A DNA stretch of 63,977 nucleotides from an uncultured Clostridia bacterium (lineage in GTDB: Bacteria; Bacillota; Clostridia; TANB77; CAG-508): contig CALXEV010000004.1 in assembly GCA_944387425.1 (NCBI GenBank), positions 1-63,977 of the forward strand. Reading direction: 5' to 3'. Position 1 is the first letter of the stretch. Every line of letters begins with the position of its first letter. The notes under the pieces are model-generated. The model had not been told where the DNA came from. It was given only the letters and a program-made list of their open reading frames with translations, and did not search any database. Shown one piece after another: positions 3,748-50,724 of the stretch. Made by a program: the position numbers and the translations under genes.

Positions 3748-4695
3748 TTAGTCTTCTTCTTCGGCGAAACTTAGTCCTAATGAATGTAATTTTGCAGTTA
3801 CTTCATCTAATGATTTCTTTCCTAAGTTTCTAACTTTCATCATATCACTTTCTGATCTATTTGTTAAATCTTCTACTGTAGCTATTCCAGCTCTCTTTAG
3901 ACAGTTGAATGAACGTACAGATAATTCTAATTCTTCTATTGATGTTTCTAAAACTTTTTCTTTTTTAGATTCTTCTTTTTCAATCATTACTTGTGTATTT
4001 TTTGTTGCTTCTGATAAATCTATGAATAATTCCAAATGCCCAGTCATAACTTTTGCTGCTAAACTTAATGCTTCATGAGCTTTTAAACTACCATCAGTCC
4101 ATACTTCGATGATTAGTTTATCATAGTCAACCATTTGCCCTACTCTAGTGTTTTTTACTTGATAATTTACTTTTTTTACTGGTGTATAAATTGAATCTAT
4201 TGGAAGCACAGATATGTCTTGGTTTGGTTTTTTATTCTTTTCTGAAGGTGAATATCCTCTTCCCATATCTGCTGTCAATTCCATTATTAATTGTCCACCT
4301 TCTGATACAGTTGCTATATGTAGGTCTGGATTTAGTATTTCAACAGTTCCATCTGTTATGATATCTCCTGCTGTTACTTCCCCTTCACCTTTAAAGTTAA
4401 TTCTCATAACTTTTTCTTCATTCTCAGCAAATTTTAGTCTAACATTTTTCAAGTTAACTATAATTTCTGGTACATCTTCTACAACATTTGGTATGCTTGA
4501 AAATTCATGTAATACACCATCTATTTTTACACTTGTAATTGCACATCCTGTTAGTGAAGATAGTAATATACGTCTTAATGAATTTCCTATTGTTACACCA
4601 TATCCTCTTTCTAATGGTTCGCATACAAATTTTGCATAATTATTTGTATCATCAACCTCTAGACATTCAATATTTGGCTTTTCAAATTCTATCAT
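3748..4695 (-). CDS. rpoA: DNA-directed RNA polymerase subunit alpha
   Basis: Full-length alpha subunit with NTD and a CTD ([17 protein letters not shown]), located between rpsD and rplQ. Confidence 0.97.
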
Positions 4696-5873: not shown

Positions 5874-6248
5874 TTAAACAGCTTTTTTTGATCTACTTAC
5901 TAATTTTCTTGGACCTTTTCTTGTACGAGCATTAGTTTTTGTTCTTTGTCCTCTTACTGGAAGACCTCTTCTATGTCTTAATCCTCTATAACATCCAATT
6001 TCTGTTAGTCTTTTGATATTTAGGGCTACTTCTCTTCTTAAGTCACCTTCAACTTTGTATTCAGCATCGATAACTTTTCTTATACTATTAACTTCATCGT
6101 CAGTTAAGTCTTTTACTCTAGTATCTGGATTAATTCCAGCTTTTTTTAATATTTTGTTTGAACTAGCTACACCTATACCATAGATATATGTAAGCCCTAT
6201 TTCTACTCTTTTTTCTTTAGGTAAATCTACTCCTGCTATACGAGCCAT
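5874..6248 (-). CDS. rpsM: 30S ribosomal protein S13
   Basis: [26 protein letters not shown]. The start was moved to the MARIAG ATG (6248), which follows a GGAGGT RBS. Confidence 0.93.
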
Positions 6249-6954: not shown

Positions 6955-7725
6955 TTATAAGATTGTCAATACTTCTGGCTCATTTTCTGTAATTAAAATT
7001 GTATTTTCATAATGTGCTGCTAAGCTTCCATCTTCTGTTATGATTGTCCAGCCATCATCTAATTGTAATATGTCTGGTTTTCCTTGGATTACCATTGGTT
7101 CTATTGCTAGAGTCATGCCAGGTTCAAGTCTTATTCCTCTTCCAGCTTTTCCATAGTTTGGTATTTCTGGTTCTTCATGCATATTTCTTCCAATTCCATG
7201 TCCTTCAAATTCTCTTACTACTGAAAAACCTTGTGATTTAACATATTCCCCTATTGCATGTGATACGTCTCCAATTCTATTTCCTTTTTTGGCAAATTTT
7301 ATTCCCTCAAAAAATGCCTGTCTTGTAACTTCTATTAATCTTTTAGCTTCTTTAGAAACATTTCCTACCATATATGTTCTAGCAGCATCTCCATTAAACC
7401 CATCTTTTAAAGCTACTAAATCCACACTTACTATATCCCCATCTTTTATATATCTTTTATTTGATGGTATGCCATGAATTACTTCATCATTTACTGAAAT
7501 ACATGTTGCAGCAGGATATTTAGGTACTCCTTTTATTCCTGGGTCATATCCTTTTTCAGCAGATATAGCACCATATTTTTTCATTGTTTCTTCTGCTATT
7601 CTATCTAAGTCAGCTGTTGTCATTCCTGGTTTTATTGCTTCTTCTATGGCTTTATGTGTAAGTGCTGTTACTCTACATGCTTCTCTCATTAATTCTATTT
7701 CTTTTTTTGATTTTATAGTTACCAT
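6955..7725 (-). CDS. map: type I methionine aminopeptidase
   Basis: Pita-bread fold motifs (VIHGIP, DIVSVDL, GHGIG, EPMV) and its position after adk. Confidence 0.95.
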   Translation of the reverse strand: MVTIKSKKEIELMREACRVTALTHKAIEEAIKPGMTTADLDRIAEETMKKYGAISAEKGYDPGIKGVPKYPAATCISVNDEVIHGIPSNKRYIKDGDIVSVDLVALKDGFNGDAARTYMVGNVSKEAKRLIEVTRQAFFEGIKFAKKGNRIGDVSHAIGEYVKSQGFSVVREFEGHGIGRNMHEEPEIPNYGKAGRGIRLEPGMTLAIEPMVIQGKPDILQLDDGWTIITEDGSLAAHYENTILITENEPEVLTIL

Positions 7726-7751
7726 TTTTATTACTCCCTCTCAAAATTTTT

Positions 7752-7783
7752 GCCTCTAATATTAATATTTTCATATTAGAGGC
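7752..7783 (-). promoter_or_regulatory. conserved GCCTCTAA hairpin immediately upstream of map
   Basis: GCCTCTAATAT / ATATTAGAGGC stem; in mRNA sense it is followed by AAAAATTTTGAGAGGGAG (RBS). A paralogous hairpin lies upstream of adk at 8661-8680. Confidence 0.5.
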
Positions 7784-7824
7784 TTATCTTTAGTATTTTT
7801 ATTTTGTTATTGTATTCTCTAAAT

Positions 7825-7910
7825 AATTTATATATAAATATTTTTTAGACAAAACATAGCTGGGGTTTAACAATCAGGGTCTTGTCTTTTAAAATATTTA
7901 TATATAAATT
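7825..7910 (-). repeat. family-2 structured hairpin element, copy 1 (inverted relative to copies 2-4)
   Basis: Perfect 20-bp arms AATTTATATATAAATATTTT / AAAATATTTATATATAAATT enclose a core whose reverse complement reads AGACAAGACCCTGATTGTTAAACCCCAGCTATGTTTTGTCT. Confidence 0.85.
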
Positions 7911-7954
7911 GCTCAGAGAAAAAAGATTATTGATGAATGAATAAATAATAACAT

Positions 7955-8660: not shown

Positions 8661-8680
8661 GCCTCTAAGGGATTAGAGGC
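8661..8680 (-). promoter_or_regulatory. conserved GCCTCTAA hairpin immediately upstream of adk
   Basis: GCCTCTAA-tccc-TTAGAGGC; in mRNA sense it is followed by AAAATTTTTT and then the RBS. It shares TTAGAGGCAAAAWTTTT with the map copy. Confidence 0.5.
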
Positions 8681-8753
8681 CTGTTCTTTTGCATCTATAT
8701 TTTAGCTCATTTTATTTAGTTTGTCAATTATTTTTAAAGTTTATGCAAATTTT

Positions 8754-8918
8754 TTGTCACAGGGACGGTCCTTGGTGACAAAATGCCAAAAAAGACCCGG
8801 TCCCAATTGGCACAATTGAAAAAATGGCAAAAGAGAACCGGCACCAAATGTCAAAATTGCCACCAAGGACCGTCCCTATTGGCAAATTTGCAAAAAAAGA
8901 ACCGGCTCAATTGTCCGG
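8754..8918. repeat. family-1 GC-core hairpin repeat cluster 2 (units C'-A-B-C-B)
   Basis: Unit C' (inverted): TTGTCAC[AGGGACGGTCCTTG]GTGACAA (8754-8781). Unit A: TGCCAA[AAAAGACCCGGTCCCAA]TTGGCA (8784-8812). Unit B: TGGCAA[AAGAGAACCGGCACCAA]ATGTCA (8825-8853). Unit C: TTGCCA[CCAAGGACCGTCCCTA]TTGGCAA (8857-8885). A degenerate B unit follows (8887-8918). Confidence 0.9.
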
Positions 8919-32399: not shown

Positions 32400-32488
32400 A
32401 ATAGTTATATATTAATATTTTAAAGACAAGACCCGGATTGTTATACCCTAGCTATGTTTTGTCTAAAAAATATTAATATATAACTATT
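32400..32488 (+). repeat. family-2 structured hairpin element, copy 2
   Basis: Perfect 21-22-bp arms ATAGTTATATATTAATATTTT / AAAATATTAATATATAACTAT around the core AGACAAGACCCGGATTGTTATACCCTAGCTATGTTTTGTCT. Confidence 0.85.
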
Positions 32489-42838: not shown

Positions 42839-42922
42839 AGATTACCAATTAATATTTCACTGTCAAAGACCCTTACGAAGCCCCCAGCTATGTTTTTGAC
42901 AAGAAATATTAATTGGTAATCT
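42839..42922 (+). repeat. family-2 structured hairpin element, copy 3
   Basis: Perfect 20-bp arms AGATTACCAATTAATATTTC / GAAATATTAATTGGTAATCT around the core TGTCAAAGACCCTTACGAAGCCCCCAGCTATGTTTTTGACA. The right arm overlaps the comM stop codon. Confidence 0.85.
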
Positions 42923-44445
42923 ATATAAATTTATCTAAGCTTCTATATTGAATTGCTTCTGCGATATGTTTATAATTAATACATTTTTCTCCATCTAAAT
43001 CAGCAATAGTTCTAGCCACTTTTAAGATTCTTTCATGAGCTCTTACACTCAGTTTTAGCTTAATAAATGCTTGTTCCAATAACATTTCTCCTCTTTTATC
43101 TAATATGCAAAATTGTGCCATTAAACGTGAATTAAGCTGAGCATTTGAATAAATTCCAAACTTTTTATATCTTTCAACCTGTATATTTCTTGCATTGTTT
43201 ACCCTTTTTCTAATATCTAGAGATGTTTCATTTTTATTTTTAGACATTATCTTTTCATACTTAGGTCTTTTTACTTCTATTTGTATATCAATTCTATCTA
43301 ATAATGGTCCACTTATCTTTTTTAAATATTTATGTATTTCTTGTTCAGTACATTTACATTCTTTTTCTTCATCCCCTAAATATCCACAAGGACATGGGTT
43401 TGTACTTGCTATAAGCATAAAATTACATGGAAATCTATAGTTTCCATTCAATCTATTTATTGTAATTTCTTTTTCTTCTAAAGGTTCTCTTAAAGCTTCT
43501 AATGTACTTCTACCATATTCTGCAAGTTCATCTAAAAATAACACTCCATTATGTGCCAAACTTATTTCTCCTGGTTTTGGAATTTTTCCTCCACCTATTA
43601 TTGTATTTATTGGAACAGAATGGTGTGGCATCCTAAATGGTCTATTCATTATTAATCCATCTCTTTTTAATTCTCCAGCAATACTATGAATTTTAGTAAT
43701 TTCCATTGCTTCTTCCATTGTAAGGTCAGGTAATATTGTTATTAGTCTTTTGGCAAGCATTGTTTTCCCGAGAACCTGGACTGCCAATCAAAAGACAGTT
43801 ATGTCCTCCAGCAGCAACTATTTCTAATGCTCTTTTTACATTTTCTTGTCCTTTAACTTCTGAAAAATCTATATCATATTTTTCATTAAATATAATTTCA
43901 TGTGAATTATAACTTTTTATAAATTTATTTCCATTTAAATGGTCTATTATTTCTATAATATCATTTGCTGGTATAATATTTAATTCTTTTATTATTGAGG
44001 CTTCATTTGCATTTGCTCTAGGTAATATGACGTTCTTTATTCCCAATTCTTTTGCTTCCATACACATTGGTAAGACCCCCTCTACTCTATTTAGCTTTCC
44101 ATCAAGAGATAGTTCACCTATAAAGATTGTATTTGCTAATTGCCCTTGTTCAATTTGAATAAAATTATTCATTGCTAGTAATATTCCTATTGCCATTGCA
44201 ACATCAAAACTACTCCCACCTTTTTTTATATCTGCAGGTGCTAAATTTATCAATATTTTTTTATTAGGAAATTCTATTCCAGAATTTCTAATTGCTGATT
44301 TAATTCGCTTTTTTGATTCTTTAACACTTATGTCTGGTAATCCAACTATATCCATTTCTGGCAATCCATTACTAATGTCTGTTTGGATTTCAATCAAATT
44401 ACCTTCTAGTCCACTTAATGCTATTGATTTTATTTTTGATAACAT
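42921..44445 (-). pseudogene. comM: comM / yifB Mg-chelatase-like ATPase, interrupted by a +1 frameshift inside the Walker A motif
   Basis: Two overlapping ORFs (43726..44445 for the N-terminal part, 42921..43787 for the C-terminal part). The N-frame reads [15 protein letters not shown] and the other frame reads GKTMLAKRL. Removing one base near 43770 restores [13 protein letters not shown]. Confidence 0.8.
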
Positions 44446-48401: not shown

Positions 48402-48489
48402 GAGTAAGGATATATTTCTATTTAAGTCAAAGCTTAGATTGTTAAGCCCTAGCTATGATTTTGACAAAAATAGAAATATATCCTTACTT
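48402..48489 (+). repeat. family-2 structured hairpin element, copy 4 (most divergent core)
   Basis: Perfect 21-bp arms AGTAAGGATATATTTCTATTT / AAATAGAAATATATCCTTACT around the core GTCAAAGCTTAGATTGTTAAGCCCTAGCTATGATTTTGAC. Confidence 0.85.
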
Positions 48490-50654: not shown

Positions 50655-50724
50655 TTGCCATAAGGGACGTTCCTTAATGGCAAATCTTTATAAATTTGTC
50701 ACCAAGGACCGTCCCCTATGGCAA
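50655..50724. repeat. family-1 repeat cluster 5 (two C units, opposite orientation)
   Basis: TTGCCAT[AAGGGACGTTCCTTA]ATGGCAA (50655-50683) and TTGTCA[CCAAGGACCGTCCCCTA]TGGCAA (50696-50724). The cluster ends 5 nt after the patatin stop and lies ~110-180 nt upstream of sigE. Confidence 0.85.

Follow-up and report, generated by a model that had tools for sequence, protein, structure and literature searches.

Four hairpins in a contig of an uncultured gut bacterium

The stretch of DNA analysed here, in the following called the window, is a contig of 63,977 nucleotides (nt) from an uncultured Clostridia bacterium of the human gut that recurs in many metagenome assemblies (GenBank CALXEV010000004.1, read on the forward strand). 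It has a G+C content of 26-32%, and nearly all of its genes lie on the minus strand. Four copies of a hairpin-forming element are found in it, each located 0-44 nt downstream of a minus-strand stop codon, namely those of adk (copy 1), a histidine kinase gene (copy 2), the C-terminal open reading frame (ORF) of comM (copy 3) and a Met-gamma-lyase gene (copy 4). These hairpins are copies of an undescribed family of short, insertion-prone palindromic repeats of uncultured low-GC gut Clostridia. The original prediction, made from the letters of the window, had named four copies, and all four were found at the places it gave. An nhmmer profile scan of the window returned these copies and nothing else, and a covariance model, which had been proposed as a check, retrieved exactly four copies when it was run over the window with the filters off. 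The canonical strand is the plus strand of the window for copy 2, the reference copy, and the minus strand for copy 1. On the canonical strand the model gives the four copies 73-94 bits, against 41-51 bits on the opposite strand, and the next-best match in the window, at 25 bits, is a different palindrome.

Copy 2 occupies positions 32400-32488 of the plus strand (93.5 bits), 17 nt past the stop codon of the histidine kinase gene and 96 nt ahead of the signal-peptidase start. Its left outer arm (32400-32421, 22 nt) pairs perfectly with the right outer arm (32467-32488, 22 nt). An unpaired AA (32422-32423) comes just before the 5' half of the inner stem (AGACAAGAC, 32424-32432), in which the G of AAG-AC makes a conserved G-T pair, and the 3' half of the stem (GTTTTGTCT, 32456-32464) is followed by an unpaired AA at 32465-32466. 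The two halves enclose an apical loop of 23 nt (CCGGATTGTTATACCCTAGCTAT, 32433-32455, core type A) that has no conserved internal helix, and the CCYAGCTATG motif (32447-32456) begins in the 3' part of this loop. Copy 1 lies on the minus strand at 7825-7910 (92.9 bits), in the adk-map spacer of a ribosomal-protein operon, where an imperfect palindrome extends across 7815-7920; in the window, this extended palindrome has 3 outer-arm mismatches. Copy 3 (42839-42922, plus strand, 86.1 bits) is positioned between dprA and the C-terminal comM ORF. The right arm and the comM stop codon share 2 nt, and 18 nt separate the end of the left arm from the start of dprA; this gap contains the ribosome-binding site of dprA. 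Copy 4 (48402-48489, plus strand, 73.5 bits) lies 6 nt past the Met-gamma-lyase stop codon. Among conspecific contigs, copy 2 (10 contigs) and copy 3 (7 contigs) are fixed and hardly vary, and copy 1 is fixed in the species with a variable outer arm, which has 29 perfect pairs in one strain and one mismatch in three.

All four copies follow one design, and here the original prediction was accurate. The outer arms are 20-22 bp long and 100% Watson-Crick paired inside each copy, the inner stem has the form NNN-CAA(A)GAC / GTTTT(T)G-NNN with the G-T pair at a fixed place, the CCYAGCTATG motif is present in 4/4 copies, and the stop codons are where they had been noted. The copies are the longest spaced inverted repeats of the 64-kb window. 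Each folds as one long hairpin with an energy of -25 to -35 kcal/mol and a z-score of -8.5 to -10.8, and a fold as good as that of the real copies was reached in 0/200 shuffles.

A search of the whole window against Rfam 15 at the gathering score gave 0 matches, which agrees with the earlier remark that no RNA or repeat class could be recognised; at E <= 10 only chance-level matches (E 0.3-7) were returned around copy 2 and for a variant with a large core (L091, see below). A phage or plasmid origin is not supported: a blastn search against plasmid and phage records found no match, and a viral-contig pattern scan produced only 6 chance matches. A full-text literature search for the core sequence, and for miniature inverted-repeat transposable elements (MITEs) in combination with Clostridia, hairpin and intergenic, found no paper. 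Three likenesses were considered and dropped as coincidental or untestable: the core resembles the CRISPR repeat of S. pyogenes (AGCTATG..GTTTTG), the arm motif TTGATAT..TAATA resembles rolling-circle nick sites, and the loop GGA resembles CsrA sites.

As regards the neighbouring genes, comM (an Mg-chelatase-like competence protein), directly upstream of copy 3 and dprA, is present as two overlapping minus-strand ORFs (42921-43787 and 43726-44445) that separate its N-terminal part (ChlI/Lon) from its C-terminal one (AAA); the split may reflect a frameshift, a pseudogene or an error of assembly. Two small hairpins that flank adk, at 7741-7772 and 8661-8680, share the stem GCCTCTAA/TTAGAGGC and differ in their loops. 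The hairpin at 8661-8680 is scored as a bidirectional terminator-like site, and the two could be copies of a third small repeat, or else terminators related to one another.

The family beyond the window

The family was collected from one genome per species in a scan with part of the core, which gave at least 113 loci. Four false matches in coding regions were removed, and the family-wide counts and percentages given here rest on the resulting ~110 copies among the matches listed, or on subsets of them. These copies are spread over at least 19 species represented by metagenome-assembled genomes (MAGs), labelled uncultured Clostridia or Clostridium, that come from the human, sheep, rabbit and chicken gut. 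Extra, unseeded copies in the 8-kb blocks around the loci suggest a density of ~50 copies per Mb.

The shared architecture consists of an AT-rich outer arm with a median length of 23 bp and a maximum of 55 bp, an asymmetric internal loop that is most often 5'-GCA / 3'-AA, an inner stem of 9 bp with the fixed G-T pair, and an apical loop of 21-25 nt, roughly 23, that ends in CCCYAGCTAT. Three types of loop were distinguished: type A, CCCGGATTGT(T/G)(A/T)NNCCCYAGCTAT; type B, CC(C/T)ATAGG(A/T)AGACCCYAGCTAT; and type C, CCCCCGACGAAGACCCYAGCTAT. The outer arms had been described as unrelated between copies, and this view has to be given up. The arms are homologous, as ~100 copies share ..(G/T)ATATAT(T/A)AATATTT(T) next to the internal loop; the consensus holds near this loop, the outer part varies freely, and the four arms of the window are diverged versions of the family consensus. 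Conservation peaks at the centre of the hairpin and not at its ends.

The family also includes irregular members. Truncated or chimeric copies occur at L055 (~6985-7030), L031 (~7383-7450, minus strand), L068 (~6094-6150) and L017 (~7793, minus strand), where, for example, AGCTATG links the left arm of one subfamily and the right half of a second one, or the right arm has been lost beside a gene start; they point to decay of the copies and to recombination among them. Three copies on a short contig of MAG CALYBE are arranged in tandem, one every 96 nt (L111, minus strand, about 2014-2330). An enlarged core is found in 2 copies only among the matches listed (L073, minus strand, about 1340-1450, and L091, minus strand, about 3900-4020), both from one sheep-jejunum MAG. 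Here a GTCTTTG further downstream is the partner of the 5' CAAAGAC, an additional CAAGAC pairs with GTTTTG over a GAA loop, and AAGACCC is present three times. As a route to a parent RNA gene this variant gave no lead.

Covariation of the helices and perfection of the arms

The covariation test that had been proposed was carried out on 50 diverse copies (alignment A2) with two named helices, the outer and the inner one, and revealed strong covariation in both. Altogether 96.9% of the cells are paired, both sides have changed at 16/30 pairs, and 185 compensatory cells are observed vs 52.5 in shuffles (0/500 shuffles reach 185); in controls with slid partners, pairing falls to 38-55%. The G-T pair of the inner stem is kept in 49/50 aligned copies from other genomes, and copies with the longer A-run in CAA(A)G also have the longer T-run in GTTTT(T)G, a covariation in length that is seen in all three loop types. 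Within the loop no helix is supported: RNAalifold pairs the inner stem alone, with an energy of -6.3 on the canonical strand vs -1.6 on the other, and a CATAG/CTATG pairing considered for the type-B cores found no support. The co-varying internal hairpin that had been proposed (GCTTA/TAAGC) is peculiar to copy 4, as family-wide only 31.9% of its cells are paired, much like in the shuffled and slid controls. Note that covariation is equally expected for a DNA hairpin as for an RNA helix.

The pairing of the arms was scored symmetrically over 91 distinct arm pairs comprising 2202 base pairs, 2174 of which are Watson-Crick. The complete absence of mismatch and wobble, as noted earlier, is true of the copies in the window (20-22 bp) and of 69/91 arm pairs family-wide, but the remaining 22 have at least one mismatch. 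Among the 28 non-Watson-Crick pairs there are 6 G-T, 6 A-C and 16 transversion-type pairs. Wobble pairs are not enriched on either strand, and wobble asymmetry in the arms was dropped as a signal of strand or RNA. In MAG CANPFO, arms that are homologous over ~45 nt and ~20% diverged between copies are yet perfect over 49-55 bp within each copy. A similar picture is given by the young 'TATAGCTATTT' subfamily (~18 copies, read by eye out of 28 copies scored), whose centres are almost identical. Here 12 paired positions are altered on both sides and still complementary, a similar number are altered on one side, and 0 are altered on both sides without complementarity; by our own estimate, ~0.04 double hits would be expected if the changes were independent, given ~1.7% one-sided change per site.

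A further comparison is that of two orthologous copies, L050 and L076. Their 500-bp flanks are identical at 463/500 and 460/500 positions (92-93%) and their 22-bp arms are identical, but the central 48 bp match at 47/48 positions as reverse complement and at 11/48 directly, i.e. the centre is precisely inverted between the two orthologues. Template switching between the arms of an inverted repeat is known to homogenise and expand the arms and to invert the spacer (PMC8604942, PMC13100816, PMC8794818, PMC7202029). We infer that template switching, or an equivalent conversion between the arms, keeps the arms perfect; it would explain perfect but variable arms without selection on RNA. The earlier hunch that perfect arms have a DNA-level origin thus gains weight from the lack of a G-T excess over A-C, from the inverted centre and from the one-step double changes. 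Two features are not explained by template switching and point to selection on the element, namely the uncorrected G-T pair of the inner stem and the low divergence of the L050/L076 element, which differs at 1/92 positions compared with 13/84 in the adjacent spacer (p = 4e-4). The uncorrected G-T pair argues for selection on a folded single strand.

Presence, absence and the unit of insertion

Copy 4 is absent from three conspecific contigs (L150, L152 and L155), in which the spacer measures 85 nt vs 182 nt in the window. The empty site, ..AATAAAATTAACTATTATTAAAAAAAAACTTG.., is without palindrome, and the filled and empty alleles show a degenerate AT-rich direct repeat only. The element of copy 1 is absent from the adk-map spacer in ~70 related metagenome contigs, this spacer being 5-34 nt long in most relatives. 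In another species (L088) the adk-map spacer carries an independent type-B copy in the opposite orientation. In four further pairs of filled and empty sites (L087/L057, L026/L038, L113/L071 and window copy 2/L029) the empty side is without palindrome, and near-identical copies occupy unrelated loci within one MAG. The family is therefore multi-copy, non-coding and polymorphic in presence at orthologous sites, as is expected of a mobile repeat.

The original prediction had offered as one of its two readings that a mobile core of ~45 nt enters pre-existing palindromes, and had proposed to look in relatives for palindromes that lack the core. None was found in the empty sites of the same or of related species. 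In the adk-map spacer, the window arms without the core were never seen, neither at 10 loci with an identical InfA nor in any of ~70 readable spacers out of 80 metagenome loci with a close Map homologue. The homology of the arms between copies makes them part of the element, and as the empty sites are in addition free of palindromes, the entry of a core into palindromes is not supported. The insertion unit is the whole hairpin, arms included.

The adk-map spacer deserves a separate comment. It belongs to the conserved ribosomal-protein/secY-adk-map-infA operon and, when L161-L240 are compared with window 7726-7954, has acquired unrelated insertions of 64-158 nt independently in several species. 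These include terminator-like hairpins and elements of family 1 and family 2 (the latter being the hairpins described here), and the spacer is either a hotspot of insertion or permissive for it.

In several species the hairpin forms part of a larger unit. In MAGs CALXUC, CAKPRQ, CALXUT and CALYBE it is the centre of a unit of ~155 bp with 15-bp terminal inverted repeats (TIRs), GTTACAATTCACAGC / GCTGTGAATTGTAAC, at its boundaries and 8-bp AT-rich target duplications outside them. The duplications are exact in L122 (TTTTAAAT) and match at 7/8 positions in L041, L066 and L106. Judging from these hallmarks, a DDE-type transposase that duplicates 8 bp of the target probably moves the TIR-bearing forms. 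The phrase "reverse of a MITE" that had been applied to the hairpin is apt in that the centre is conserved and the ends are free, but several species do have the hairpin within a conventional MITE. In the window, no TIR of the GTTACAATTCA type lies within 150 nt of the four copies, which end in different sequences and thus lack the conserved TIRs of a classical MITE. These termini recur at L099 (182-405; GTTATAATTCACAG.../...CTGTGAACTGTAAC) in a MITE whose 8-bp duplication, AATTATTC, is exact. Its centre of ~100 nt is a different one, lies between perfect AT-rich arms and has no credible match in Rfam at E <= 10. Because the same TIR frames a different centre in L099, the hairpin behaves as a separable cargo or core module that occurs alone or inside other repeats, and the shared termini suggest that the MITE scaffold is modular and can hold different centres.

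A second palindromic family, with the motifs GGGACG(G/T)TC...TTGGCA/TTGCCA, was noted in the window at 8741-8900 (arms 8761-8781 / 8857-8877), 50656-50723 and 503-511, where it stands alone, and also in L019, L062, L050, L076 and L238. In L238 it fills the adk-map spacer as a perfect palindrome, and in MAGs CALXCD and CALXME the family-2 hairpin lies inside its arms (GGGACGTTC...TTGGCA).

Position and orientation relative to genes

Only 1/109 copies scored lies inside a called ORF; all the others are intergenic. Between co-directional genes the element is nearer to the upstream stop codon in 58/69 cases (p = 8e-9), with median distances of 50 nt and 137 nt, and its orientation with respect to these genes has a weak bias (44 antisense, 25 sense; p = 0.03). 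A further 17 copies lie in divergent spacers and 10 in convergent ones. Matches to promoter-like and terminator-like consensus sequences are at chance level, with none inside the copies. At none of the four window copies, the stems of which contain 20-34% G+C, is there a G+C-rich stem followed by a T-run as in an intrinsic terminator, and some copies in other genomes have A-run/T-run borders around the arms. The mixed orientation, the copies in divergent spacers and the chance-level promoter and terminator matches do not fit a strand-specific cis-acting RNA.

Interpretation and alternative explanations

We put the probability at about 60% that the four hairpins are one family of non-coding, hairpin-forming interspersed repeats, i.e. 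non-autonomous mobile DNA of a REPIN/MITE-like kind. Arms that differ between copies would be kept complementary at the level of DNA, stepwise compensation of the RNA type being less likely, and the inner stem with its G-T pair, together with the loop, would be the part preserved by selection on the element. The most likely reason for this preservation, and the one that we prefer, is that the tip may be a cis-acting site which a trans-acting protein, of the host or of a transposon, would recognise on the canonical strand in its folded form; we suggest this because the tip is the only family-wide constant of the bare hairpins. The placement by the 3' ends of genes would mostly reflect tolerance of insertions, with a possible side effect on mRNA 3' ends.

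Several observations weigh against this interpretation. TIRs are present on both sides in only 16/106 copies, on one side in 19 and on neither in 71, and the bare hairpins differ in their ends in every copy and have no clear target duplication. The polymorphism of copy 4 could reflect a deletion and not an insertion. No transposase or other mobilising gene was detected among the window ORFs tested against Pfam, and an all-against-all blastp of 981 ORFs from 113 related 8-kb loci revealed no multi-copy ORF, only housekeeping orthologues. The invariance of the core is partly built in, as the scan demanded part of it, and unseeded copies, found in flanking DNA by the profile only, bear core substitutions such as AGATATG, CCTTAGC and CCACAG. 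The role given to template switching is read from patterns, and the inverted centre was seen in one orthologous pair only. Finally, the G-T pair of the inner stem is never "corrected"; selection must therefore override the DNA-level homogenisation there, which points to a strand-specific folded single strand of DNA or RNA.

Among the alternatives, the hairpins might be a domesticated host element similar to REP sequences or bacterial interspersed mosaic elements (BIMEs), acting as a stabiliser of mRNA 3' ends, as a weak bidirectional terminator or through a protein-binding tip, with mobility a thing of the past. The strong bias to the 3' side of upstream genes (58/69) would be well accounted for, as would the A-runs 5' and T-runs 3' of the arms in many copies, the near invariance of the fixed copies 1-3 among conspecific strains, the conservation of the element beyond that of the neighbouring spacer between two species, and the tolerance of copies in essential operons (adk-map, comM-dprA). 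But AT-rich stems miss the terminator consensus, an IHF-like site occurs in 0/103 unique copies, copy 4 is dispensable in some strains, orthologous spacers of relatives do without the element, and decayed, truncated and chimeric copies are common. We consider domestication unlikely, although it is compatible with mobile DNA and does not exclude it. A more radical idea, which we regard as quite unlikely, makes the tip, i.e. the 9-bp stem with its obligatory G-T pair and the CC...CCCYAGCTAT loop, the recognition site of an enzyme that acts on the folded single strand and mobilises or copies hairpins whatever their ends. Such an "inside-out" transposable element would carry its recognition module at the apex, and its arms would be regenerated or homogenised by fold-back or template-switch synthesis; in a variant of the idea, the tip could be a small functional RNA or DNA aptamer that travels as cargo of several MITE scaffolds.

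The other reading of the original prediction, a strand-specific structured RNA, draws at best weak support from the covarying stems and the G-T pair on one strand, and loses ground on the mixed orientation, the flipped centre and the helix-free loop. As a non-coding RNA (a ribozyme, a protein-binding RNA or a cis-regulatory 3' element) the copies would be paralogous RNA genes or motifs, their stems kept by compensation at the RNA level. It is true that both helices covary strongly, that the inner-stem pair is compatible with G-U on one strand only, that the covariance model favours the canonical strand by 40-50 bits and RNAalifold gives it the better fold, that the element is better conserved than its flanks in one orthologous pair, and that most copies are probably co-transcribed given the 58/69 tandem cases nearer to the upstream stop codon. 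At the same time, most read-through transcripts would bear the non-canonical strand (44 antisense to 25 sense), 17 copies stand between divergent genes, and the centre flips between orthologues with the element retained. Moreover, the arms show no G-U enrichment (6 vs 6) and are perfect to 55 bp, far past what RNA stability needs, the loop gives no signal of a conserved helix or pseudoknot, promoter and terminator consensus matches do not exceed chance, no Rfam family is matched even at E <= 10, and dozens of copies per genome with insertion polymorphism are typical of mobile DNA. We therefore rate the RNA explanation as very unlikely. Hardly credible, and already largely refuted, is the insertion of the ~45-nt inner stem and loop into the loops of existing 3'-end palindromes, with the arms as host sequence. 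Some copies do centre larger palindromes that resemble bidirectional terminators or other repeat families (L079, AAAAAAGCAAC.../...GTTGCTTTTTT; outer GGGACGTTC... arms in L019, L062 and L050), and type-C copies have an 8-nt direct repeat, ATGGAATA, flanking the inner stem. Yet empty sites within and across species are without palindrome, ~70 related adk-map spacers include none with the window arms minus the core, arms homologous across all core types (..ATATAT(T/A)AATATTT) travel with the core, and identical units of arm plus core recur at unrelated loci.

Comparison with known systems

The hairpins add a new repeat family to the poorly known uncultured gut Clostridia, with strain-variable copies in core operons (adk-map, comM-dprA) that could serve strain typing and may affect operon expression. 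They are also an unusually clear natural case of long arms held perfect by a process that apparently acts on DNA, and they illustrate that arm covariation of DNA origin can be mistaken for evidence of RNA structure.

It is instructive to compare the family with the small repeats of other bacteria. Bacterial MITEs (Correia/NEMIS, RUP and ERIC-like elements) are likewise small, intergenic and insertion-polymorphic and have an AT-rich palindromic body, and the units of CALXUC, CAKPRQ, CALXUT and CALYBE, with their TIR GTTACAATTCACAGC and 8-bp target duplications, are of this kind. In contrast to MITEs, the window copies and 71/106 copies overall have no TIR, and the centre is conserved instead of the ends. 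In the BIME-1/RIP elements of E. coli, two inverted REPs surround a conserved central segment with an IHF site. The similarity lies in the inverted arms around a conserved asymmetric centre, in the length of ~100 bp and in the location at 3' ends of transcription units. Here, however, the IHF consensus WATCAANNNNTTR occurs in 0/103 unique copies on either strand, the arms are not REP sequences, and the centre forms a stem of its own with a G-T pair. Integron attC sites are recombination sites that act as folded single strands, with conserved boxes at the base of the stem and a variable tip. Both attC sites and our hairpins conserve structure while the sequence of the stem is free, and in both, asymmetries such as unpaired bases mark one strand; but the hairpins conserve the tip, are dispersed and not arranged in cassette arrays, and have no integron integrase context.

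REPINs, the RAYT-mobilised REP doublets of Pseudomonas and Enterobacteria (PMC3116915), come close in many respects. They are short, non-coding and extragenic, reach tens to hundreds of copies, consist of two inverted halves that fold into a long hairpin as RNA or as single-stranded DNA, show compensatory changes, and are non-autonomous and persistent in their lineages. REPINs have invariant ends (REP 16-mers) and a less conserved spacer (PMC3116915), whereas the present family conserves the apical stem-loop, its arm ends differ between copies and REP-type ends are lacking. Furthermore, the hosts of REPINs are Proteobacteria and the host of the hairpins is a Firmicute, and no RAYT or transposase was found among the ORFs tested in the 64-kb window and the related 8-kb blocks. 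Template-switched inverted repeats, or quasipalindromes (PMC8604942, PMC7202029, PMC8794818, PMC13100816), share with the hairpins the perfect, wobble-free arms of variable extent, the compensated changes made in one step and the precisely inverted spacer between orthologues. Template switching is a mutational mechanism and not a class of elements, and it leaves the tip, the multiplication of copies and the uncorrected G-T pair unexplained; in addition, the spacer inversions reported for it are mostly of a few bases, and that of the hairpin family is 48 bp long. The family thus resembles REPINs, BIMEs and MITEs and yet departs from each of them in the very feature by which it is defined. Its pattern of conservation, with the tip kept across species and the ends free, is the opposite of that in MITEs and REPINs, and if the tip turns out to be the recognition site of a mobilising enzyme, the family would hint at a new way of moving hairpin DNA.

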